From the UHGV virus genome UHGV-1586087: a stretch of 11,726 nt of DNA; one strand, written 5' to 3'. A program made the position numbers and the translations under genes. The DNA is from a virus. A model generated the notes under the pieces. The model saw only the letters and a program-made list of their open reading frames with translations. It searched no databases and was not told the origin of the DNA. Shown here in pieces: positions 1-11,726 of this stretch (positions are counted from its first letter, which is position 1; the number at the start of each line of letters is the position of its first letter).

Positions 1-44
1 CACCGTCTAATTCGTCGGCAGCGTCAGATGTGTATAAGAGACAG
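1..44. other. Synthetic Illumina Nextera adapter: P5 tail CAC (1-3), 8-nt index-like CGTCTAAT (4-11), TCGTCGGCAGCGTC (12-25), Tn5 mosaic end AGATGTGTATAAGAGACAG (26-44). Not biological.
   Basis: Exact match, read directly, to the Nextera read-1 adapter and 19-bp Tn5 mosaic end as I know them. The inverted partner is at the other window end. Confidence 0.95.
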
Positions 45-407
45 ACCGGTGGTGCTGTAACGCTTTTCCAGAAACGCATTACCGAACACCAGAAAATCCA
101 GCACAAAGCGGCTGAAATCCTGCTGAGAAAGCCACGGATGCGGAATAAACGTTGAAGCCAGAATATTGCGTTTAACGTAAATCGGCGAGCTGTGATGCAC
201 GGCAGCACGCAGGCTTTTTGCCAGACCGGTAAAGCTGACCGGTGGCTCATACCATCTGCCGTTACTGATGCACTCGACGTAATCCAGAATGTCACGGCGG
301 TCGAGAACCGGCACCGGCTCGCCAAAGGTGAATGCCTCCATTTTCGGTGCACTGGCGGTCATTGTTTTTGCCGCAGGTTGCGGTGTTTTCCCTTTTTTCT
401 TGCTCAT
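45..407 (-). CDS. Q: Portal (capsid portal vertex) protein, N-terminal part only; 5'-partial window artefact, gene continues beyond the insert end
   Basis: Minus-strand ORF with ATG at 407..405. Translation MSKKKGKTPQPAAKT...DYVECISNGRWYEPP is recognised as the N-terminus of P2 gpQ. It lies downstream of and coupled to P, as in P2. The last residues of the supplied ORF (...GLSLIHI) are translated from adapter, not phage DNA. Confidence 0.85.
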
Positions 408-2179
408 CAGTAAAACTCCAGAATGGTGGATGTCAGCGGGGTGCTGATACTGGCGGTGAGTGGCTCATTTAACAGGGCGTGCATGGTCGCCCAGGCGAGG
501 TCGGCGTGGCTGGCTTCCTCGCTGCGGCTGGCCTCATAGGTGGCACTGCGTCCGCTGCTGGTCATGGTCTTGCGGATAGCCATAAACGAGCTGGTGATGT
601 CGGTGGCGCTGACGTCATATTCCAGACAGCCACGGCGGATGACGTCTTTTGCCTTGAGCACCATTGCGGTTTTCATTTCCGGCGTGTAGCGGATGTCGCG
701 CGCGGCGGGATAGAACGAGCGCACGAGCTGGAACACGCCGACACCGAGGCCGGTGGCATCAATACCGATGTATTCGACGTTGTATTTTTCGGTGAGTTCG
801 CGGATGGATTCAGCCTGGGTGGCAAAGTCCATGCCTTTCCACTGGTGACGCTCAAGTATTCTGAATTTGCCACCGGCCACCACCGGCGGTGCCAGTACCA
901 CGCATCCGGCACTGTCGCCACGGTGTGACGGGTCGTAACCAATCCATACCGGGCGGGAGCCGAACGGATTGGCGGCAAAGGGTGCATAGTCTTCCCATTC
1001 TTCCAGCGTGTCGACCATGCAGCGTTGCAGCTCCTCGAACGGGAACACCGACGCCTTGTCGTCAACAAATTCACACATGAACAGGTTTTTAAAATCGTCG
1101 GCGCTGTTTTCACGTTTGAGCTGCTCAATGTCGAACAACGTGCAGCCGCCTTTCAGCGCGTCCTCAATGGTGACAATCTGCCGCCACTGGCCGTCCGCAC
1201 AGAGAAGACCTCCGGCAAGTGCGTTATGACTGACGTCGATTTCCACGCGTTCGGCGGCGCTGGCGCGTCCCCGGTTAAACAGTTCACCGGACCAGAACGG
1301 ATAGGCGTCGTGCGCCAGCGTGGACGGGGTGGAGAAATAGGTCGAGCGCAGGTGACTCTGTGAGGCCATACCTGATGCCACCTTTCGCAGTACCTGAAAA
1401 TTCGGGATCCAGAAAATCTCGTCGACGTACAGGTCGCCGTTATGGCTCTGTGCGGTGTTGGAGTTGGTGCCGAGAAAAATCAGTTTTGCGCCGTTATTGC
1501 CCAGGACAATCGGGTCACCGGTCAGGTCAACGTCAACCAGACGGGCAAAGGCGATGATGTATTCGCGGAACACATACGCCTGCGTTTTACTGGCCGACAG
1601 AAAAATCTGGTTATGACCGGTTTTCAGGGCGCGCAGCAGCGCCTCGCGGGAAAAATAAAACGTTGCGCCAATCTGGCGGGATTTCAGGATATCGCGGATG
1701 CGGTGCTCAAGCCCGGCGCGATACCAGTGCAACTGATATTCGAAAGACTGCTCAAAGAAAATCTGCTCCAGCTTTTCGATGGCCTCGTCACTGAAAAAAT
1801 TCTTTTTCGGTTTGCGACGCCCGCCTTTGTTGCGGTTAGCGACGTTCGGATTAAGGTCTGCCTCGTTGCCGGTCTGGCTGTAGCGGTTGACCCGTGCCAG
1901 TCGTTCAATCTGGCGTCCGAGCAGGTCAATTTCCTTGAAGTCACCGCCGGTTTTCTGCGGTTTGATGATGAGCTGGGTCAGCCGCGCTTCCAGACTCATT
2001 TCGACACGGCTGATGGGGGCAACGCTGTCCCAGCCGTCGCGCTGTTTCCAGCTCTGCACCGTCGGGCGTTTCATCTGCAACATGGCGGCAATCTGCGGCA
2101 CGGAAAACCCCTGCCAGTACAGCAGCGCCGCCTGACGACGCGGGTCGTGTAAAAGAGTGGTGTCTGTGGTGATGGTCAT
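407..2179 (-). CDS. P: Terminase large (ATPase) subunit
   Basis: 600-aa minus-strand ORF in the track begins at a TTG (2209..2207). An in-frame ATG at 2179..2177 (MTITTDTTLLHDP...) has a GAGG Shine-Dalgarno about 6 nt upstream and gives 590 aa. Walker-B-like motif GDLYVDE is present. The TGA stop (409..407) overlaps the Q ATG (407..405). Recognised as P2 gpP. Confidence 0.9.
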   Translation of the reverse strand: MTITTDTTLLHDPRRQAALLYWQGFSVPQIAAMLQMKRPTVQSWKQRDGWDSVAPISRVEMSLEARLTQLIIKPQKTGGDFKEIDLLGRQIERLARVNRYSQTGNEADLNPNVANRNKGGRRKPKKNFFSDEAIEKLEQIFFEQSFEYQLHWYRAGLEHRIRDILKSRQIGATFYFSREALLRALKTGHNQIFLSASKTQAYVFREYIIAFARLVDVDLTGDPIVLGNNGAKLIFLGTNSNTAQSHNGDLYVDEIFWIPNFQVLRKVASGMASQSHLRSTYFSTPSTLAHDAYPFWSGELFNRGRASAAERVEIDVSHNALAGGLLCADGQWRQIVTIEDALKGGCTLFDIEQLKRENSADDFKNLFMCEFVDDKASVFPFEELQRCMVDTLEEWEDYAPFAANPFGSRPVWIGYDPSHRGDSAGCVVLAPPVVAGGKFRILERHQWKGMDFATQAESIRELTEKYNVEYIGIDATGLGVGVFQLVRSFYPAARDIRYTPEMKTAMVLKAKDVIRRGCLEYDVSATDITSSFMAIRKTMTSSGRSATYEASRSEEASHADLAWATMHALLNEPLTASISTPLTSTILEFY

Positions 2180-2352
2180 GAATACCTCGCCGTGATGAAT
2201 ACACGGCAAGGCTACTGAGTCGCGCCCCGCGATTCGCTAAGGTGCTGTTGTGTCAGTGATAAGCCATCCGGGACTGATGGCGGAGGATGCGCATCGTCGG
2301 GAAACTGATGCCGACATGTGACTCCTCTAATCACTATTCAGGACTCCTGACA
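2180..2352. promoter_or_regulatory. Divergent late-promoter region between P (leftward) and O (rightward); expected site of activator (Ogr-type)-dependent late promoters
   Basis: 173-bp non-coding gap between divergently transcribed operons. Contains a perfect 10-bp palindrome GATGCGCATC (2286-2295) flanked by direct repeats ACTGATG (2273-2279 and 2304-2310), and TGT-rich sequence at 2246-2253. I could not find a perfect TGT-N12-ACA element. Promoter placement follows from P2 biology, not a verified motif. Confidence 0.45.
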
Positions 2353-3207
2353 ATGGCAAAAAAAGTCTCAAAATTCTTTCGTATCGGCGTTGAGGGTGAC
2401 ACCTGTGACGGGCGTGTCATCAGTGCGCAGGATATTCAGGAAATGGCCGAAACCTTTGACCCGCGAGTCTATGGTTGCCGCATTAACCTGGAACATCTGC
2501 GCGGCGTCCTGCCTGACGGTATTTTTAAGCGTTATGGCGATGTGGTCGAACTGAAGGCCGAAAAGATTGACGATGATTCGGCGCTGAAAGGCAAATGGGC
2601 GCTGTTTGCGAAAATCACCCCGACCGATGACCTTATCGCGATGAACAAGGCCGCGCAGAAGGTCTATACCTCAATGGAAATTCAGCCGAACTTTGCCAAT
2701 ACCGGCAAATGTTATCTGGTGGGTCTGGCCGTCACCGATGACCCGGCAAGCCTCGGCACGGAATACCTGGAATTCTGCCGCACGGCAAAACACAACCCCC
2801 TGAACCGCTTCAAATTAAGCCCTGAAAACCTGATTTCAGTGGCAACGCCCGTTGAGCTGGAATTTGAAGACCTGCCTGAAACCGTGTTCACCGCCCTGAC
2901 CGAAAAGGTGAAGTCCATTTTTGGCCGCAAACAGGCCAGCGATGACGCCCGTCTGAATGACGTGCATGAAGCGGTGACCGCTGTTGCTGAACATGTGCAG
3001 GAAAAACTGAGCGCCACTGAGCAGCGCCTCGCTGAGATGGAAACCGCTTTTTCCGCACTTAAGCAGGATGTGACTGACAGGGCGGATGAAACCAGCCAGG
3101 CATTCACCCGCCTGAAAAACAGTCTCGACCACACCGAAAGTCTGACCCAGCAGCGCCGCAGCAAGGCCACCGGTGGTGGCGGTGACGCCCTGATGACGAA
3201 CTGCTGA
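2353..3207 (+). CDS. O: Capsid scaffolding protein
   Basis: ATG at 2353 (MAKKVSKFFRIGVEGDTCDGRV...) with AGGA 9-10 nt upstream gives 284 aa. The track ORF starts upstream at 2287, probably a spurious extension. Recognised as P2 gpO. Confidence 0.9.
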   Translation: MAKKVSKFFRIGVEGDTCDGRVISAQDIQEMAETFDPRVYGCRINLEHLRGVLPDGIFKRYGDVVELKAEKIDDDSALKGKWALFAKITPTDDLIAMNKAAQKVYTSMEIQPNFANTGKCYLVGLAVTDDPASLGTEYLEFCRTAKHNPLNRFKLSPENLISVATPVELEFEDLPETVFTALTEKVKSIFGRKQASDDARLNDVHEAVTAVAEHVQEKLSATEQRLAEMETAFSALKQDVTDRADETSQAFTRLKNSLDHTESLTQQRRSKATGGGGDALMTNC

Positions 3208-3265
3208 CCGGCGTCAGTCAGTCCGGGAAAACCTTCACGATTAACCCTTAATTTCAGGAAAAACT

Positions 3266-4339
3266 ATGCGCCAGGAAACCCGCTTTAAATTTAATGCCTA
3301 CCTGTCCCGTGTTGCCGAACTGAACGGCATCGACGCCGGTGATGTGTCGAAAAAATTCACCGTTGAACCGTCGGTCACCCAGACCCTGATGAACACCATG
3401 CAGGAGTCCTCTGACTTTCTGACCCGCATCAACATTGTGCCGGTCAGCGAAATGAAAGGGGAAAAAATTGGCATCGGTGTCACCGGCTCCATCGCCAGCA
3501 CCACCGACACCGCCGGTGGCACCGAGCGTCAGCCGAAGGACTTCTCGAAGCTGGCGTCAAACAAGTACGAATGCGACCAGATTAACTTCGATTTTTATAT
3601 CCGCTACAAAACGCTGGACCTGTGGGCGCGTTATCAGGATTTCCAGCTCCGTGTCCGTAACGCCATTATCAAACGCCAGTCCCTTGATTTAATCATGGCC
3701 GGTTTTAACGGCGTGAAGCGTGCCGAAACCTCTGACCGCAGCAGCAATCCGATGCTGCAGGATGTGGCGGTCGGCTGGCTGCAGAAATACCGCAATGAAG
3801 CCCCGGCGCGCGTGATGAGTAAGGTCACTGACGAGGAAGGCCGCACCACCTCTGAGGTTATCCGCGTGGGTAAGGGCGGTGATTATGCCAGCCTCGATGC
3901 ACTGGTGATGGATGCGACCAACAACCTGATTGAACCGTGGTATCAGGAAGACCCGGACCTTGTGGTGATTGTGGGACGTCAGCTACTGGCGGACAAGTAT
4001 TTCCCCATCGTTAACAAGGAGCAGGATAACAGCGAAATGCTGGCCGCTGACGTCATCATCAGCCAGAAACGCATCGGTAACCTGCCGGCGGTACGCGTCC
4101 CGTACTTCCCGGCGGATGCGATGCTCATCACGAAGCTGGAAAACCTGTCCATCTACTACATGGATGACAGCCATCGCCGCGTGATTGAGGAAAACCCGAA
4201 ACTCGACCGCGTGGAGAACTACGAGTCAATGAACATTGATTACGTGGTGGAAGACTACGCCGCCGGTTGTCTGGTGGAAAAAATCAAGGTCGGTGATTTC
4301 TCCACACCGGCTAAGGCGACCGCAGAGCCGGGAGCGTAA
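3266..4339 (+). CDS. N: Major capsid protein
   Basis: 357-aa ORF with AGGA about 7 nt upstream of the ATG. Translation MRQETRFKFNAYLSRVAELNGIDAGDV... is recognised as P2 gpN, in the expected position after O. Confidence 0.92.
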   Translation: MRQETRFKFNAYLSRVAELNGIDAGDVSKKFTVEPSVTQTLMNTMQESSDFLTRINIVPVSEMKGEKIGIGVTGSIASTTDTAGGTERQPKDFSKLASNKYECDQINFDFYIRYKTLDLWARYQDFQLRVRNAIIKRQSLDLIMAGFNGVKRAETSDRSSNPMLQDVAVGWLQKYRNEAPARVMSKVTDEEGRTTSEVIRVGKGGDYASLDALVMDATNNLIEPWYQEDPDLVVIVGRQLLADKYFPIVNKEQDNSEMLAADVIISQKRIGNLPAVRVPYFPADAMLITKLENLSIYYMDDSHRRVIEENPKLDRVENYESMNIDYVVEDYAAGCLVEKIKVGDFSTPAKATAEPGA

Positions 4340-4342
4340 CCG

Positions 4343-5086
4343 ATGACGAGTCCCGCACAGCGCCACATGATGCGGGTCTCGGCAGCGATGACCGCGCAGC
4401 GGGAAGCCGCCCCGCTGCGACATGCAACTGTCTATGAGCAGATGCTGGTTAAGCTCGCCGCAGACCAGCGCACACTGAAAGCGATTTATTCAAAAGAGCT
4501 TAAGGCCGCGAAAAAACGCGAACTGCTGCCGTTCTGGTTGCCGTGGGTGAACGGCGTGCTGGAGCAGGGCAAAGGTGCACAGGATGACATTCTGATGACG
4601 GTCATGCTGTGGCGTCTGGATACCGGCGATATTGCCGGTGCGCTGGAGATTGCCCGTTATGCCCTGAAGTACGGTCTGACCATGCCGGGTAAACACCGCC
4701 GCACCCCGCCGTACATGTTCACCGAGGAGGTGGCGCTTGCGGCCATGCGTGCTCACGCTGCCGGTGAGTCTGTGGATACCCGCCTGCTGACGGAGACCCT
4801 TGAACTGACCGCCACGGCTGACATGCCTGATGAAGTGCGCGCAAAGCTGCACAAAATCACCGGTCTGTTTCTGCGTGACGGTGGTGATGCCGCCGGTGCG
4901 CTGGCTCACCTGCAACGTGCGACACAGCTCGACTGTCAGGCAGGCGTCAAAAAAGAGATTGAACGACTGGAGCGGGAGCTGAAACCGAAGCCGGAGCCGC
5001 AGCCCAAAGCGGCCACCCGTACCCCGCGTAAGACCCGGAGCGTGACACCGGCAAAACGTGGACGCCCGAAAAAGAAAGCCAGTTAA
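4343..5086 (+). CDS. M: Terminase small (endonuclease/DNA-recognition) subunit
   Basis: 247-aa ORF starting 3 nt after the N stop, with GGAG 8 nt upstream inside the N 3' end. Lys/Arg/Pro-rich C-terminal tail. Recognised as P2 gpM. Confidence 0.88.
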   Translation: MTSPAQRHMMRVSAAMTAQREAAPLRHATVYEQMLVKLAADQRTLKAIYSKELKAAKKRELLPFWLPWVNGVLEQGKGAQDDILMTVMLWRLDTGDIAGALEIARYALKYGLTMPGKHRRTPPYMFTEEVALAAMRAHAAGESVDTRLLTETLELTATADMPDEVRAKLHKITGLFLRDGGDAAGALAHLQRATQLDCQAGVKKEIERLERELKPKPEPQPKAATRTPRKTRSVTPAKRGRPKKKAS

Positions 5087-5116
5087 CAACCGAATGCGCC
5101 CCGCGCCAGGGCGGCA

Positions 5117-5157
5117 CGCCGGTCAGTGAGGGTGAATCACCTGACGCTGTACCGGCG
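5117..5157. repeat. Nested inverted repeats in the M-L spacer: outer arms CGCCGGT / ACCGGCG (5117-5123 and 5151-5157) enclosing the palindrome GGTGA-a-TCACC (5131-5141)
   Basis: Read directly from the sequence. GC-rich, no trailing T-run. Function unknown. Confidence 0.5.
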
Positions 5158-5185
5158 TCCACCGCCCGACTTTTCAGAGGTAGTC

Positions 5186-5695
5186 ATGATGACGCTGATT
5201 ATTCCGCGAAAGGAGGCTCCCGTGTCCGGTGAGGGTACGGTGGTCATCCCGCAACCGGCAGGCGACGAGCCGGTGATTAAAAACACGTTCTTTTTTCCCG
5301 ATATCGACCCGAAGCGCGTCCGGGAACGTATGCGCCTTGAGCAGACCGTCGCCCCCGCCCGTCTGCGTGAGGCCATCAAGTCAGGCATGGCGGAGACGAA
5401 TGCGGAGCTGTACGAGTACCGCGAACAGAAAATTGCCGCCGGTTTTACGCGTCTGGCGGACGTTCCGGCGGACGACATCGACGGTGAAAGCATCAAAGTT
5501 TTTTACTACGAGCGCGCCGTGTGTGCGATGGCGACCGCGTCGCTTTATGAGCGTTATCGCGGCGTGGATGCCAGTGCGAAAGGCGACAAGAAGGCTGACA
5601 GCATTGACAGCACCATTGATGAACTGTGGCGGGATATGCGCTGGGCGGTGGCGCGTATCCAGGACAAGCCGCGCTGCATCGTGAGTCAAATCTGA
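5186..5695 (+). CDS. L: Head completion / capsid stabilisation protein
   Basis: ATG at 5186 (MMTLIIPRKEAPVSGEG...) with GAGG 5 nt upstream gives 169 aa. The track ORF starts at an upstream in-frame GTG (5126), which I treat as an extension. Stop overlaps the X start (TGATGA at 5693-5698). Confidence 0.88.
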   Translation: MMTLIIPRKEAPVSGEGTVVIPQPAGDEPVIKNTFFFPDIDPKRVRERMRLEQTVAPARLREAIKSGMAETNAELYEYREQKIAAGFTRLADVPADDIDGESIKVFYYERAVCAMATASLYERYRGVDASAKGDKKADSIDSTIDELWRDMRWAVARIQDKPRCIVSQI

Positions 5696-5898
5696 TGAAG
5701 ACCTTTGCGCTACAGGGCGACACGCTCGACGCCATTTGTGTCCGGTATTACGGGCGCACTGAGGGCGTGGTCGAGGCCGTGCTCGCCGCAAATCCGGGAC
5801 TGGCTGAACTGGGCGCGGTGCTGCCGCACGGCACCGCCGTCGAACTGCCCGACGTTCAGACCGCGCCCGTGGCTGAAACTGTCAATCTGTGGGAGTAA
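5695..5898 (+). CDS. X: Tail protein X, small LysM-like protein
   Basis: ATG at 5695 overlapping the L stop gives 67 aa (MKTFALQGDTLDAICVRYYGRTEGVV...LPHGTAVELPD). The pattern GDTL...I...YG...NP...L..G..L.LP resembles a LysM fold. Recognised as P2 gpX. Confidence 0.85.
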   Translation: MKTFALQGDTLDAICVRYYGRTEGVVEAVLAANPGLAELGAVLPHGTAVELPDVQTAPVAETVNLWE

Positions 5899-5901
5899 CG
5901 C

Positions 5902-6183
5902 ATGACAGCAGAAGAAAAAAGCGTCCTGTCGCTTTTCATGATTGGGGTGCTGATTGTTGTCGGCAAGGTGCTTGCCGGTGGTGAACCCATCACCCCGCGT
6001 CTGTTTATCGGGCGCATGTTGCTCGGTGGTTTTGTCTCGATGGTTGCCGGTGTTGTTCTGGTGCAGTTTCCTGACCTGTCACTGCCTGCGGTGTGCGGCA
6101 TCGGCTCCATGCTGGGTATCGCCGGTTATCAGGTGATTGAGATTGCCATTCAGCGCCGCTTTAAGGGCAGGGGGAAACCGTAA
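5902..6183 (+). CDS. Y: Holin
   Basis: 93 aa with about three hydrophobic helices and a basic C-terminus (QRRFKGRGKP). GGAG 6 nt upstream. Sits directly upstream of the endolysin. Recognised as P2 gpY. Confidence 0.88.
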   Translation: MTAEEKSVLSLFMIGVLIVVGKVLAGGEPITPRLFIGRMLLGGFVSMVAGVVLVQFPDLSLPAVCGIGSMLGIAGYQVIEIAIQRRFKGRGKP

Positions 6184-6680
6184 TGCCGGTAATCAACACG
6201 CATCAGAATATCGCTGCCTTTCTCGACATGCTGGCCGTGTCCGAAGGGACGGCGAATCATCCGCTGACGAAAAACCGGGGCTATGACGTGATAGTCACCG
6301 GACTGGACGGGAAGCCGGAAATCTTCACCGACTACAGTGACCACCCGTTCGCACATGGCCGACCGGCGAAGGTGTTTAACCGTCGCGGTGAAAAATCCAC
6401 GGCCTCCGGTCGCTATCAGCAGCTTTACCTGTTCTGGCCGCATTACCGCAAACAGCTTGCCCTGCCGGATTTCAGTCCGTTGTCACAGGACAGACTCGCC
6501 ATTCAGTTGATCCGCGAACGCGGTGCGCTGGATGACATCCGGGCGGGGCGCATTGAACGCGCCATTTCACGCTGTCGCAATATCTGGGCGTCCCTGCCGG
6601 GTGCCGGTTACGGTCAGCGTGAGCATTCACTGGAAAAACTGGTCACCGTCTGGCGTACCGCTGGCGGCGTACCGGCTTAA
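6183..6680 (+). CDS. K: Endolysin (phage lysozyme/muramidase family)
   Basis: 165 aa; ATG overlaps the Y stop (TAATG at 6181-6185). Recognised as P2 gpK. The catalytic class is taken from knowledge of P2, not from motifs I verified here. Confidence 0.88.
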   Translation: MPVINTHQNIAAFLDMLAVSEGTANHPLTKNRGYDVIVTGLDGKPEIFTDYSDHPFAHGRPAKVFNRRGEKSTASGRYQQLYLFWPHYRKQLALPDFSPLSQDRLAIQLIRERGALDDIRAGRIERAISRCRNIWASLPGAGYGQREHSLEKLVTVWRTAGGVPA

Positions 6681-6694
6681 ACGGAGTAAACACC

Positions 6695-7120
6695 ATGAAG
6701 AAATTATCCCTTTCACTGATGCTGAACGTGTCGCTGGCGCTGATGCTGGCACTGTCCCTGATTTACCCGCAGAGCGTGGCCGTCAGTTTTGTCGCCACCT
6801 GGGCGATTCTGGCGACGGTTATCTGTGTGGTTGCCGGTGGTGTCGGCGTGTATGCCACGGAGTATGTACTGGAGCGCTACGGGCGGGAGCTGCCGCCGGA
6901 ATCGCTGGCCGTGAAGATTGTCACGTCGCTGTTTTTGCAGCCGGTGCCGTGGCGCAGACGGGCGGCGGCTCTGGTGGTGATGGTGGTGACGTTTATCTCG
7001 CTGGTCGCTGCCGGGTGGATTTTTACCGCGCTGATTTATCTCGTGGCGTCGGTGTTCTTCCGGCTGATACGTACGGCCTGCCGTCAGCGTTTTGAGGGGC
7101 GGGAACCATGTCAAAGCTGA
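6695..7120 (+). CDS. lysA: Lysis-timing membrane protein LysA (antiholin-like, multi-pass)
   Basis: 141 aa with three to four long hydrophobic segments (LSLMLNVSLALMLALSLIY, WAILATVICVVAGGVGVYA, AALVVMVVTFISLVAAGWIFTALIYLVASVFF). GGAG 8 nt upstream. Position and sequence match P2 lysA. Confidence 0.82.
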   Translation: MKKLSLSLMLNVSLALMLALSLIYPQSVAVSFVATWAILATVICVVAGGVGVYATEYVLERYGRELPPESLAVKIVTSLFLQPVPWRRRAAALVVMVVTFISLVAAGWIFTALIYLVASVFFRLIRTACRQRFEGREPCQS

Positions 7121-7533
7121 TGATTGTGCTGGTTGTGTTGTTATCGCTGGCTGTGGCGGGACTGTTTCTGGTGAAGCATGAAAACGCCAGCCTGCGCGTC
7201 TCGCTGGACAGGGCAAACAATGTCGCCAGCGGGCAGCAGACGACCATCACCATGCTGAAAAACCAGCTTCATGTTGCCCTTACCAGGGCAGACAAAAACG
7301 AGCTGGCGCAGGTGGCACTGCGTCAGGAGCTGGAGAACGCCGCGAAGCGTGAAGCACAGCGCGAGAAAACCATCACGAGGTTACTCAATGAAAACGAAGA
7401 TTTTCGCCGCTGGTACGGCGCTGACCTGCCTGATGCTGTGCGCCGGTTGCACCAGCGTCCGGCCTGCACCGACGCCAGTGATTGTCCACAACGCCTGCCC
7501 GAAAGTGAGCCTTTGCCCGATGCCGGGCAGTGA
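7108..7533 (+). CDS. lysB: Rz-like inner-membrane spanin (i-spanin) LysB
   Basis: 141 aa with an N-terminal transmembrane segment (LMIVLVVLLSLAVAGLFLV), then a charged coiled-coil-like region and a Pro-rich C-terminus. Overlaps the lysA 3' end by 13 nt. Matches P2 lysB. Confidence 0.85.
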   Translation: MSKLMIVLVVLLSLAVAGLFLVKHENASLRVSLDRANNVASGQQTTITMLKNQLHVALTRADKNELAQVALRQELENAAKREAQREKTITRLLNENEDFRRWYGADLPDAVRRLHQRPACTDASDCPQRLPESEPLPDAGQ

Positions 7534-7678
7534 CCCGCAGACGAACGGCGATTTAAGTGCCGATATCCGGCAGCTTGAAAACGCGCTGGCACGCTGTGCC
7601 AGCCAGGTAAAAATGATTAAACACTGTCAGGACGAAAACGATGCTCAAACCCGACAGCCTGCGCAGGGCGCTGACTGA
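7388..7678 (+). CDS. lysC: Rz1-like outer-membrane lipoprotein spanin (o-spanin) LysC, in the +1 frame overlapping the lysB 3' end and the R 5' end
   Basis: ATG at 7388 with GAGG 7 nt upstream gives 96 aa (MKTKIFAAGTALTCLMLCAGCTS...), with a lipoprotein-type signal, Cys-containing lipobox-like LCAGC and a Pro-rich mature part. The track ORF (7271-7678) is the same frame with a spurious upstream extension. Confidence 0.8.
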   Translation: MKTKIFAAGTALTCLMLCAGCTSVRPAPTPVIVHNACPKVSLCPMPGSDPQTNGDLSADIRQLENALARCASQVKMIKHCQDENDAQTRQPAQGAD

Positions 7679-8108
7679 TGCCGTCACGGTGCTGAAAACC
7701 AGTCCAGAGATGCTTCGGATATTCGTGGATAACGGGAGTATTGCCTCCACGCTGGCGACGTCGCTGTCGTTCGAAAAGCGTTACACGCTCAATGTGATTG
7801 TGACCGACTTTACCGGTGATTTTGACCTGCTCATCGTGCCGGTGCTGGCGTGGCTGCGGGAAAATCAGCCCGACATCATGACCACCGACGAAGGCCAGAA
7901 AAAGGGCTTCACGTTTTATGCAGACATCAACAATGACAGCAGCTTTGATATCAGCATCAGTCTGATGCTGACCGAGCGCACGCTGGTCAGCGAGGTTGAT
8001 GGTGCGCTGCATGTGAAGAATATCCCGGAACCCCCGCCGCCGGAGCCGGTCACCCGCCCGGTGGAGCTTTATATCAATGGCGAACTGGTGAGCAAGTGGG
8101 ATGAATGA
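7641..8108 (+). CDS. R: Tail completion protein R
   Basis: 155 aa; ATG at 7641 lies inside the lysC 3' end. Recognised as P2 gpR. Confidence 0.88.
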   Translation: MLKPDSLRRALTDAVTVLKTSPEMLRIFVDNGSIASTLATSLSFEKRYTLNVIVTDFTGDFDLLIVPVLAWLRENQPDIMTTDEGQKKGFTFYADINNDSSFDISISLMLTERTLVSEVDGALHVKNIPEPPPPEPVTRPVELYINGELVSKWDE

Positions 8109-8553
8109 GTTTAAGCGTTTTGAAGACCGGCTGACCGGACTGATTGAATCGCTGTCACCGTCAGGGCGTCGGCGACTGAGTGCCGAACTGGCGAAACGTC
8201 TGCGTCAGAGTCAGCAGCGTCGGGTGATGGCACAGAAAGCCCCGGACGGCACACCCTACGCGCCACGTCAGCAGCAGAGCGCCAGAAAAAAGACCGGTCG
8301 CGTTAAGCGAAAAATGTTTGCGAAACTTATCACCAGTCGTTTTTTGCATATCCGCGCCAGCCCTGAACAGGCATCAATGGAGTTTTACGGCGGAAAGTCA
8401 CCGAAAATCGCCAGTGTGCATCAGTTTGGTCTGTCGGAAGAAAACCGGAAGGACGGTAAGAAAATTGATTATCCGGCGCGTCCTCTGCTCGGCTTTACCG
8501 GTGAGGATGTGCAGATGATTGAAGAGATTATCCTGGCTCACCTCGACCGTTAG
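8101..8553 (+). CDS. S: Tail completion protein S
   Basis: 150 aa; start overlaps the R stop (ATGAATGA at 8101-8108). Recognised as P2 gpS. Confidence 0.88.
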   Translation: MNEFKRFEDRLTGLIESLSPSGRRRLSAELAKRLRQSQQRRVMAQKAPDGTPYAPRQQQSARKKTGRVKRKMFAKLITSRFLHIRASPEQASMEFYGGKSPKIASVHQFGLSEENRKDGKKIDYPARPLLGFTGEDVQMIEEIILAHLDR

Positions 8554-8584
8554 TTGTGCCATTCCCGACACCTCATCGTCACAT

Positions 8585-8608
8585 TGCCGCCGGTATGACC
8601 CGGCGGCA
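8585..8608 (+). terminator. GC-rich hairpin in the S-V spacer (stem GCCGCCGG / CCGGCGGC, 6-nt loop); candidate terminator or attenuator for the O-to-S operon, possibly overlapping the V late promoter
   Basis: Perfect 8-bp inverted repeat (8586-8593 and 8600-8607), extended by a T-A pair at 8585/8608. The downstream sequence is only weakly T-rich (catccttcccgtt), so intrinsic-terminator status is uncertain. Confidence 0.35.
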
Positions 8609-8619
8609 TCCTTCCCGTT

Positions 8620-9255
8620 ATGAACACTCTCGCAAATATTCAGGAACTCGCGCGCGCACTGCGCAACATGATCCGCACCGGCATTATCGTCGAAACCGAC
8701 CTTAACGCCGGTCGCTGCCGTGTGCAGACCGGCGGCATGTGCACCGACTGGCTTCAGTGGCTGACCCATCGCGCCGGACGTTCGCGCACATGGTGGGCAC
8801 CTTCCGTGGGGGAACAGGTGCTGATTCTGGCCGTGGGCGGTGAACTCGACACGGCGTTCGTTCTGCCGGGGATTTATTCCGGCGATAACCCCGCGCCGTC
8901 TGCGTCGGCGGATGCCCTGCATATCCGTTTCCCTGACGGGGCGGTGATTGAATATGAACCCGAAACCAGTGCACTCACGGTAAGCGGAATTAAAACAGCC
9001 AGCGTGACGGCTTCTGATTCTGTTACTGCCACGGTGCCGGTGGTCATGGTGAAAGCATCAACCCGCGTCACCCTGGACACACCGGAGGTGGTCTGCACCA
9101 ACAGGCTGATTACCGGCACGCTGGAAGTGCAGAAGGGCGGGACGATGCGCGGCAACATTGAACACACCGGCGGTGAACTCTCATCAAACGGTAAGGTACT
9201 GCATACCCATAAACACCCCGGCGACAGCGGCGGCACAACCGGGAGTCCTTTATGA
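8620..9255 (+). CDS. V: Baseplate central spike protein V
   Basis: 211 aa, recognised as P2 gpV. The C-terminal His-rich tip HTHKHPGDSGG is consistent with the metal-binding spike apex described for P2 gpV. Confidence 0.9.
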   Translation: MNTLANIQELARALRNMIRTGIIVETDLNAGRCRVQTGGMCTDWLQWLTHRAGRSRTWWAPSVGEQVLILAVGGELDTAFVLPGIYSGDNPAPSASADALHIRFPDGAVIEYEPETSALTVSGIKTASVTASDSVTATVPVVMVKASTRVTLDTPEVVCTNRLITGTLEVQKGGTMRGNIEHTGGELSSNGKVLHTHKHPGDSGGTTGSPL

Positions 9256-9599
9256 CAGCGCGTTATCTCGGAATGAATCGCAGTGATGGCCTGACTGTCA
9301 CTGACCTTGAGCATATCAGCCAGAGTATCGGCGATATCCTGCGCACACCGGTCGGCTCACGGGTGATGCGTCGTGATTACGGCTCGTTGCTGGCGTCAAT
9401 GATTGACCAGCCGCAGACCCCGGCGCTTGAGTTGCAGATTAAGGTCGCCTGTTACATGGCCGTGCTGAAATGGGAACCCCGCGTCACCCTGTCATCCGTC
9501 ACCACGGCGCGCAGTTTTGACGGGCGAATGACGGTCACGTTAACCGGCCAGCACAACGACACCGGCCAGCCACTTTCGTTAACCATCCCTGTGAGTTGA
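9252..9599 (+). CDS. W: Baseplate wedge protein W (T4 gp25-like)
   Basis: 115 aa; ATGA overlap with the V stop (9252-9255); GGGAG 6 nt upstream. Recognised as P2 gpW. Confidence 0.9.
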   Translation: MTARYLGMNRSDGLTVTDLEHISQSIGDILRTPVGSRVMRRDYGSLLASMIDQPQTPALELQIKVACYMAVLKWEPRVTLSSVTTARSFDGRMTVTLTGQHNDTGQPLSLTIPVS

Positions 9600-9603
9600 A
9601 ACC

Positions 9604-10512
9604 ATGCCGATTATCGACCTGAACCAGCTACCCGCACCGGATGTGGTCGAGGAGCTGGACTTTGAAACCATTCTTGCCGAACGCAAGGCGACACTGATTT
9701 CCCTTTACCCGGAAGACCAGCAGGAGGCGGTCGCCCGTACCCTGACGCTGGAATCTGAGCCTCTCGTCAAACTGCTGGAGGAAAATGCTTATCGTGAGCT
9801 TATCTGGCGTCAGCGTGTGAATGAGGCTGCACGGGCGGTGATGCTGGCCTGTGCCGCCGGTAATGACCTTGATGTGATTGGTGCCAATTACAACACCACA
9901 CGCCTGATTATCACCCCGGCAGATGATTCGACCCTCCCGCCGACACCGGCCGTGATGGAATCTGACACCGATTATCGTCTGCGTATTCAGCAGGCGTTTG
10001 AAGGTTTAAGCGTCGCCGGGTCGGTGGGGGCCTATCAGTATCATGGTCGAAGTGCCGACGGGCGTGTCGCAGATATCTCTGTCACCAGTCCTTCTCCGGC
10101 CTGCGTCACCATCTCTGTGCTGTCACGTGAAAATAACGGTGTGGCATCCGAAGACCTGCTGGCGGTGGTGCGCAACGCCCTTAATGGTGAGGACGTGAGA
10201 CCGGTGGCCGACCGTGTGACCGTGCAGTCTGCCGTCATCGTTGAATACCAGATAAATGCCACGCTTTACCTTTACCCTGGCCCCGAAAGCGAACCCATTC
10301 GCGCTGCCGCCGTGAAAAAACTGGAAGCGTATATCACGGCACAGCACCGGCTGGGGCGCGACATCCGACTGTCTGCCATTTATGCCGCTTTGCATGTGGA
10401 AGGCGTGCAGCGTGTCGAACTGGCTGCACCGCTGGCCGACATCGTGCTCAACAATACGCAGGCGTCTTTCTGTACCGAATACAGCGTCGTGACCGGAGGC
10501 TCGGATGAGTGA
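9604..10512 (+). CDS. J: Baseplate assembly protein J (T4 gp6-like wedge)
   Basis: 302 aa, recognised as P2 gpJ; starts 4 nt after the W stop. Confidence 0.9.
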   Translation: MPIIDLNQLPAPDVVEELDFETILAERKATLISLYPEDQQEAVARTLTLESEPLVKLLEENAYRELIWRQRVNEAARAVMLACAAGNDLDVIGANYNTTRLIITPADDSTLPPTPAVMESDTDYRLRIQQAFEGLSVAGSVGAYQYHGRSADGRVADISVTSPSPACVTISVLSRENNGVASEDLLAVVRNALNGEDVRPVADRVTVQSAVIVEYQINATLYLYPGPESEPIRAAAVKKLEAYITAQHRLGRDIRLSAIYAALHVEGVQRVELAAPLADIVLNNTQASFCTEYSVVTGGSDE

Positions 10513-11116
10513 TTCGCGACTGCTGCCGACCGGCTCATCACCGCTTGAAGTCGCTGCCGCAAAAGCCTGTGCGGAAATTGAAAAAACGCCGGTCAGTATT
10601 CGTGAGCTGTGGAACCCGGACACCTGCCCGGCAAATCTGCTGCCGTGGCTGGCGTGGTCATTTTCGGTTGACCGCTGGGATGATAAGTGGCCGGAAGCGA
10701 CAAAACGCGCTGTTATCCGCGATGCGTATTTCATTCACTGCCATAAGGGCACTATAGGCGCAATCCGGCGTGTGGTGGAGCCGCTCGGCTATCTGATTGA
10801 GGTGAGGGAGTGGTGGCAGCTCAACGAGGAGCCGGGGACGTTCCGCATCGTTGTTGGCGTGCTTGAGCAGGGTATTACCGAGGAAATGTATCAGGAGCTG
10901 GAGCGCCTCGTTGCTGATGCAAAACCGGCAAGCCGCCATCTGACGGGACTGGCTATCAGTTTAAGTACAACCGGCAACATTTTTGCCGGTGCGGGATGCT
11001 ATCACGGTGACGCCCTGACGGTTTATCCCTACACCCCGGAGGCCATTATTGTCGGAGGGGATTATTTCCCGGCCTCGGCCATTCATTTAATTGATAACCT
11101 GAGAGTAAACGCATGA
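10505..11116 (+). CDS. I: Baseplate / tail-fibre attachment protein I
   Basis: 203 aa; ATG at 10505 overlaps the J 3' end by 8 nt. The N-terminal two thirds are recognised as P2 gpI-like. I recall P2 gpI as somewhat shorter, so the C-terminus may differ; this is unverified. Confidence 0.82.
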   Translation: MSDSRLLPTGSSPLEVAAAKACAEIEKTPVSIRELWNPDTCPANLLPWLAWSFSVDRWDDKWPEATKRAVIRDAYFIHCHKGTIGAIRRVVEPLGYLIEVREWWQLNEEPGTFRIVVGVLEQGITEEMYQELERLVADAKPASRHLTGLAISLSTTGNIFAGAGCYHGDALTVYPYTPEAIIVGGDYFPASAIHLIDNLRVNA

Positions 11117-11678
11117 CAGTGAAATACTACGCCATTCTGACTAATCAGGGCGCAGCACGGCTGGCTAACGCGACGATGCTCGGCAGTAAGCTGAATCTGA
11201 CGCAAATGGCCGTTGGTGATGCGAATGGTGTCTTGCCGACACCAGACCCGGCACAGACAAAACTGATTAACCAGAAACGCATCGCGCCGCTGAATCTTCT
11301 GAGTGTTGACCCGAACAACCAGAGCCAGATTATTGCGGAGCAAATCATCCCTGAGAACGAGGGCGGATTCTGGATCCGTGAGATTGGGCTTTATGATGAT
11401 GAAGGCGTACTCATTGCGGTGGCGAACTGCCCGGAAACGTACAAACCGCAGTTGCAGGAAGGCAGTGGTCGTACCCAGACTATCCGCATGATTCTGGTTG
11501 TCACGAATACCGAAGCTATTACGCTGAAAATCGACCCGTCGGTGGTACTGGCGACCCGTAAATACGTGGATGATGAAGTCCTGGAATTAAGGCTGTATGT
11601 GGATGATCAGATGAGAAACCACATTGCCGCACAGGATCCTCATACCCAGTATGCACAGAAACATAATCCGACATTTAC
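11113..11678 (+). CDS. H: Tail fibre protein, N-terminal 188 codons only; 3'-partial, open to the insert end
   Basis: ATG at 11113 overlaps the I stop (ATGA). My own translation gives MTVKYYAILTNQGAARLANATMLGSKLNLTQMAVGDANGVLP...EGGFWIREIGLYDDEGVLIAVAN...GSGRTQTIRMILVV... with no stop before the adapter. Conserved phage tail-fibre N-terminal motifs are present (MAVGD, GGFW.RE.GLYDD.G.LIAVAN, EGSGR.QT.RM). It is absent from the ORF track because no stop is reached. Confidence 0.85.
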
Positions 11679-11726
11679 CTGTCTCTTATACACATCTCCG
11701 AGCCCACGAGACTCGACGTCATCTCG
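11679..11726. other. Synthetic Illumina Nextera adapter: Tn5 mosaic end CTGTCTCTTATACACATCT (11679-11697), CCGAGCCCACGAGAC (11698-11712), 8-nt index-like TCGACGTC (11713-11720), start of P7 ATCTCG (11721-11726). Not biological.
   Basis: Exact match, read directly, to the reverse-complement Nextera read-2 adapter layout as I know it. Confidence 0.95.

Follow-up and report, generated by a model that had tools for sequence, protein, structure and literature searches.

Truncated Nextera adapter sequences cap both ends of a contig from a P2-like prophage

We asked whether the last 48 nt of the UHGV virus genome UHGV-1586087 belong to the phage or to the library from which it was sequenced. The DNA was analysed as one stretch of 11,726 nt, referred to here as the window. 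An earlier note on this stretch had taken positions 11679-11726 for an inverted Nextera/Tn5 adapter, and the reading was borne out, with correct coordinates: a pattern search of the window, in which the 8-nt index was left free, returned one site, at 11679-11726, with a match at 48 of 48 positions. Read from the letters, the terminus consists of CTGTCTCTTATACACATCT, CCGAGCCCACGAGAC, TCGACGTC, and ATCTCG in direct succession, which are assigned as follows:

11679-11697, plus strand: CTGTCTCTTATACACATCT, the right copy of the 19-nt Tn5 mosaic end (exact match; inverted relative to 26-44)
11698-11712, plus strand: CCGAGCCCACGAGAC, the Nextera Read-2 (B15) adapter arm (pattern search)
11713-11720, plus strand: TCGACGTC, the i7 index N729 of Nextera XT v2 (index table of PMC7589761)
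11721-11726, plus strand: ATCTCG, the 6-nt start of the P7 flow-cell sequence (ATCTCGTATGCCGTCTTCTGCTTG)

With 40 specified bases and approximately 23,000 positions, arithmetic gives a chance expectation of approximately 2e-20 for the right adapter, and the adapter pattern had no match in 200 dinucleotide-preserving shuffles with up to three mismatches allowed. When tested against full-length reference adapters, the right 48-mer proved to be an exact prefix of ME-Read2-N729-P7 (ME, mosaic end); it is incomplete, with 48 of the 66 nt of the full reference adapter. Public contigs with the same N729 index run on as ...ATCTCGTATGCCGTCTTCTGCTTGAAA, and the terminal ATCTCG is therefore the start of P7. 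N729 is listed as TCGACGTC in a published primer table (PMC7589761, Appendix B), and in the N729 primer GACGTCGA follows the P7 primer sequence CAAGCAGAAGACGGCATACGAGAT (PMC7589761). The Read-2 arm at 11698-11712 has the form that arises where read 1 continues past the insert. For NexteraXT inserts below the read length, the 34-mer CTGTCTCTTATACACATCTCCGAGCCCACGAGAC is to be trimmed from the 3' terminus of read 1 (Turner 2014, PMC3906532), and the window carries this read-1 version of the run-through sequence at its right end.

The opposite end of the window, positions 1-44, is built in the same modular way from the P5 side of the adapter pair, as CAC, CGTCTAAT, TCGTCGGCAGCGTC, and AGATGTGTATAAGAGACAG:

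1-3, plus strand: CAC, the 3-nt end of the P5 flow-cell sequence of Illumina (...GATCTACAC)
4-11, plus strand: CGTCTAAT, the i5 index S510 of Nextera XT v2 (index table of PMC7589761)
12-25, plus strand: TCGTCGGCAGCGTC, the Nextera Read-1 (A14) adapter arm (reverse complement in PMC3906532)
26-44, plus strand: AGATGTGTATAAGAGACAG, the left copy of the 19-nt hyperactive Tn5 mosaic end (exact match)

The left 44-mer is an exact suffix of P5-S510-Read1-ME in the same test against full-length reference adapters, and is likewise incomplete (44 of 70 nt, where 70 nt is the full reference adapter). In the published table, S510 is CGTCTAAT, and the P5 primers end in GATCTACAC before the index (PMC7589761). 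The 8-mers that had been described as "index-like" are thus real catalogue indexes, N729 on the right and S510 on the left. For read 2, the sequence trimmed after the mosaic end is GACGCTGCCGACGA, and the run-through sequence in full is CTGTCTCTTATACACATCTGACGCTGCCGACGA, again for NexteraXT inserts shorter than the read; the same source warns that adapter run-through can disturb de novo assembly (Turner 2014, PMC3906532). Adapter screening, proposed in the earlier note as a check, found that both termini match Illumina adapter sequences exactly. Every part of a Nextera XT v2 adapter pair (mosaic end, Read-1 and Read-2 arms, indexes, and P5/P7) is exact, and the parts stand at the contig ends in read-through orientation. 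In comparison with the full adapters there is no sequence difference; the copies in the window are merely truncated.

Between these termini, which add 44 and 48 nt of synthetic DNA, lie 11,634 nt of genuine prophage. The features of this part that matter here are the insert itself and the two reading frames that meet its ends:

45-11678, plus strand: natural insert, P2-like (Peduovirus) late region (one colinear alignment piece)
24-407, minus strand: chimeric portal-adapter ORF, 127 aa (translation)
11113-11678, plus strand: tail-fibre gene H, truncated, with its first 188 codons only (PF12571)

Gene identities were obtained from the gene calls of the source contig, Pfam families, and the annotations of relatives. 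The minus strand carries the partial portal gene (Q') and the terminase gene P, divergent from the late genes of the plus strand, which follow in the order O, N, M, L, X, Y (holin), K (lysin), lysA, lysB, lysC, R, S, V, W, J, I, and H' (partial). The insert is 97.3-98.0% identical to Salmonella phage MET_P1_103_31 and to Escherichia phages pro483, S164, and P2, and up to 98.5% identical to E. coli chromosomal prophages. At least 80% of it is carried by 1,480 of 5,426 complete E. coli genomes, and 72 phage records align to 45-11679 as one piece with at least 80% coverage. Escherichia phage pro483 (NC_028943.1) and the prophage of E. coli 1332KP (NZ_CM173849.1) have a gene order identical to that of the window and align to 45-11678 in one piece, at 97.8-98.5% nucleotide identity; compared with them, the window holds part of the region only, and there are no biological differences of note. 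The insert aligns to its relatives as a single piece, with no chimeric joins inside it, and a search of the window against Rfam at gathering thresholds gave no match. Judged from its sequence, the insert is an ordinary P2-like E. coli prophage segment.

Both ends of the insert fall inside genes. Only the first 121 codons of the portal gene Q are present (45-407), compared with 1035 nt in relatives. The chimeric ORF consists of these 121 natural N-terminal codons followed by six adapter-encoded residues (LSLIHI), with a stop at 24-26 within the adapter. Pfam matched no family in the 121-aa N-terminal fragment, so that the identification as portal rests on orthology to annotated relatives. At the other end, the earlier note had stated that gene H is cut at 11678, which agrees with the comparison to full-length homologues: these have 392-499 aa, against the 188 codons kept in the window. 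The N-terminal 150 residues of H match PF12571 (Phage_tail_fib, tail-collar fibre N-terminal domain) with E=2.3e-63. The H frame enters the adapter as ...NPTFT followed by CLLYTSPSPRDSTSS, and a partial H product would end in this adapter-encoded stretch. As a side observation, the 127-aa portal-adapter chimera was called as a gene and is present in a public protein collection, so that protein catalogues now contain residues encoded by the adapter.

The chimeric portal-adapter ORF is unique to the junction, and we used it as a probe for the record from which the window derives. It is recorded on one contig in one sample, ena:ERZ652702:NODE_787_length_11726_cov_11.630880, and with this probe the junction was met in that record only. 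Names of the pattern NODE_n_length_L_cov_C are those given by SPAdes and metaSPAdes, in which cov is the k-mer coverage. Because the record has a SPAdes-style name with a coverage field, the window is an assembled contig (k-mer coverage approximately 11.6x) rather than one long read. In metaSPAdes, k usually goes no higher than 55, and both adapter remnants (44 and 48 nt) are shorter than this. We infer that remnants below 55 nt fit dead-end extensions from junction-spanning k-mers, limited by the reach of the supporting reads.

We are close to certain that both termini are partial Nextera XT v2 dual-index adapters (N729 on the right and S510 on the left), which were carried from untrimmed reads into a de Bruijn-graph (SPAdes-style) assembly of a metagenome. 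The course of events may be pictured as follows. Tn5 tagmentation would have cut the prophage DNA at many sites, including 44/45 and 11678/11679, and some of the library fragments that end at these two sites would have been shorter than the read length. Read 1 would then have run past the insert into the mosaic end, the Read-2 arm, the i7 index, and P7, giving the right end of the window; read 2 would have run into the mosaic end, the Read-1 arm, the i5 index, and P5, the reverse complement of which gives the left end. If these reads were assembled without adapter trimming, the unique k-mers at the insert/adapter junctions could have led to dead-end contig extension where the assembler was without a usable genomic continuation. 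The lack of trimming and the short-insert read-through are thus presumed steps, as is the loss of the genomic path at both sites, for which a local coverage gap or an unresolved graph may be responsible. Two points count against this explanation: (i) the breakpoints lie away from the points where relatives diverge, which leaves a coverage gap or a graph dead end as the only account of why the assembler stopped at these sites; and (ii) the layout, with P5 at the left end and P7 at the right end, is exactly that of a single library molecule, and by our estimate chance would produce it in only about half of the contigs capped at both ends.

A variant of this explanation would accept the adapters as artefactual and let biology set the contig ends, either through strain-level branching of co-occurring P2-like prophages or because the ends are real ends or deletion boundaries of a prophage remnant. 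There are grounds for considering it. An E. coli genome has up to four places related to the insert, which makes graph branching plausible in a metagenome, and the hypervariable C-terminal part of H starts near the window-equivalent of position 11860, approximately 180 nt past the insert end. We nevertheless regard a biological origin of the breakpoints as unlikely, as the comparison with relatives points the other way. Homology to every relative spans 45 to 11678/11679; the uncertainty of one base arises by coincidence, as the adapter begins at 11679 with a C, which is also the next base of the natural sequence. Compared base by base, pro483 is perfectly identical up to both junctions and then has unrelated natural sequence opposite the adapter. 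Compared with each other, six relatives keep 97-100% identity for approximately 180 nt past 11678 and, on the left side, for 600 nt or more before 45. The proposal that the breakpoints are divergence points of P2-like prophages (that is, graph branches) was rejected, since all six relatives are conserved past both sites. An adapter at a given position, moreover, proves one Tn5 cut only. Because relatives stay conserved beyond both sites, the breakpoints appear to be arbitrary positions within conserved genes, of the kind that individual Tn5 cut sites would give, and not module boundaries. The right 48-mer had no match in the 5,426 complete E. coli genomes (28 Gb). These genomes commonly carry the insert, and the adapter is therefore no part of prophage biology.

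If the ends are adapters added in the laboratory, as we conclude, the window might still represent one physical molecule of 11.6 kb that was tagmented, amplified by index PCR, and sequenced over its full length with long reads or synthetic long reads. The arrangement itself would suit such a molecule, with P5, i5, and Read 1 on the left and Read 2, i7, and P7 on the right, in exactly the orientation of one Nextera molecule. We consider this very improbable, however. The record NODE_787 is an assembler contig with a k-mer coverage of approximately 11.6x, and the adapters are truncated on both sides, whereas a full molecule would carry complete P5 and P7. Other assemblies show P7-type adapters at left and right ends alike, so that a single-molecule origin is not needed to explain the layout. 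In addition, 11.6 kb is far above the size of Nextera XT index PCR products. There is similarly very little chance that the contig is one long, physically continuous product of tagmentation, made for instance with a Tn5 protocol for long fragments or synthetic long reads and later assembled with SPAdes; were it so, the adapters would mark the real ends of an 11.6-kb molecule, which would be a technical curiosity and not biology. The earlier note had offered two origins for the doubly capped stretch. Its contig assembled from untrimmed reads is upheld by the record name and the truncated adapters; its long read of a tagmented molecule is rejected.

The mosaic ends deserve separate treatment, as they can be mistaken for something else. 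The 19-mer is the engineered hyperactive Tn5 mosaic end (PMC2566895). It matches the window exactly in two places only, 26-44 (minus strand) and 11679-11697 (plus strand), where none are expected by chance, and the mosaic-end search found no internal adapters in the window. An inverted-repeat scan gave a terminal inverted repeat of exactly 19 nt, and in the search for a longer terminal repeat no complementarity was found beyond it: the outer arms of the two termini differ, with Read 1 and P5 on the left and Read 2 and P7 on the right. The description of the 3' end as the reverse-complement partner of the 5' adapter consequently holds over the 19-nt mosaic end and fails for the outer arms.

The terminal inverted repeats of natural Tn5/IS50, also 19 nt long, belong to the family of those in the window, and the mosaic end was engineered from Tn5 ends. 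The natural outside end, CTGACTCTTATACACAAGT, differs from the 19-mer of the window at three positions. Unlike natural Tn5/IS50, the window has neither a transposase gene nor resistance genes, and Illumina arms stand outside its repeats. No transposase gene was found between the ends, in agreement with the earlier note: the 17 genes called in window 1-10407 are without exception late genes of P2 type and fall into phage Pfam families, and the remainder past 10407 holds gene I and the truncated H, both tail genes. Just inside the adapters, the flanking 9-mers are ACCGGTGGT and GACATTTAC, which are unrelated, and only Illumina arms lie outside the ends; a Tn5 9-bp relationship was considered for these inner 9-mers and rejected. 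A genuine Tn5/IS50-type composite transposon that captured phage late genes, as the perfect 19-nt inverted repeats near both termini might suggest, can be dismissed as having a negligible probability, against an engineered 19-mer, Illumina-specific arms with catalogue indexes and P5/P7 flanking it, a gene content of P2 late genes only, an adapter missing from every complete E. coli genome searched, and ends that cut the portal gene and gene H in mid-ORF where relatives are continuous. That the ends are synthetic and no real transposon, as the earlier note had it, is likewise confirmed by P5/P7, the catalogue indexes, the engineered mosaic end, and the lack of a transposase.

The window is not alone in carrying such ends. 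In IMG/VR, the exact N729 48-mer occurs in 24 stored stretches, all from dataset 3300045988 (loci L004-L027). All 24 copies face outward and lie at most 21 nt from the terminus of their stretch; some of them extend into the full P7 sequence plus AAA. P7-type adapters are found there at the left as well as the right ends of pieces. Five UViG contigs (028685, 106205, 111754, 015637, and 084147) have two adapter copies each and are longer than the stretches, which suggests pieces joined across adapters. Among GenBank phage records, 44 contain the Read-2-side Nextera adapter, many at record ends and some inside annotated genes. RefSeq entries are among the 44 (NC_054919.1, NC_049392.1, NC_048142.1, and NC_049948.1), and in vB_EcoM_G4507 the adapter match lies under a CDS annotated as "baseplate hub subunit and tail lysozyme".

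A related case is Peduovirus P22H1 (LR595870.1 / NC_049386.1), in which the same Nextera adapter is embedded in the record of a P2-like genome. Its adapter is internal, within a 36-nt in-frame insertion in the terminase gene, whereas those of the window cap the contig ends. The insertion is located at 615-650 of the aligned stretch (L033; approximately 1297-1332 of LR595870.1), equivalent to approximately position 455 of the window, and contains a complete 33-nt Nextera Read-1 adapter, TCGTCGGCAGCGTCAGATGTGTATAAGAGACAG. The CDS of the P22H1 terminase ATPase is 1809 nt long, versus 1773 nt in relatives. Adapter carry-over is a recurrent and well-understood artefact.

The terminal sequences of the window are a laboratory and assembly artefact of an already known kind, and not a biological feature. 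They matter for data hygiene only, and the same contamination is also in GenBank and RefSeq phage records and in IMG/VR. The synthetic ends give a fake 19-nt inverted repeat that can be mistaken for the ends of a transposon or of a virus. Positions 1-44 and 11679-11726 are to be masked before downstream use, and the terminal ORFs (portal Q and tail-fibre H) are to be treated as truncated.

Two minor observations were made on the relatives of the insert. The alignments of many P2-like phages (P22H1, P22H4, 9W, L-413C, and Wphi) end at 10938-10941, inside gene I, and past these positions the alignments of pro483, S164, and P2-T22 go on; going by these alignments, the stop probably marks a mosaic boundary of the I/H tail-fibre module. 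In NC_041848.1 ("Escherichia phage P2", E. coli O157:H43 T22), the annotation splits the large subunit of the terminase into two CDS that overlap, 1363-2748 and 2708-3136, which hints at a frameshift or sequencing error in this entry; the P gene of the window is intact, with 590 aa.
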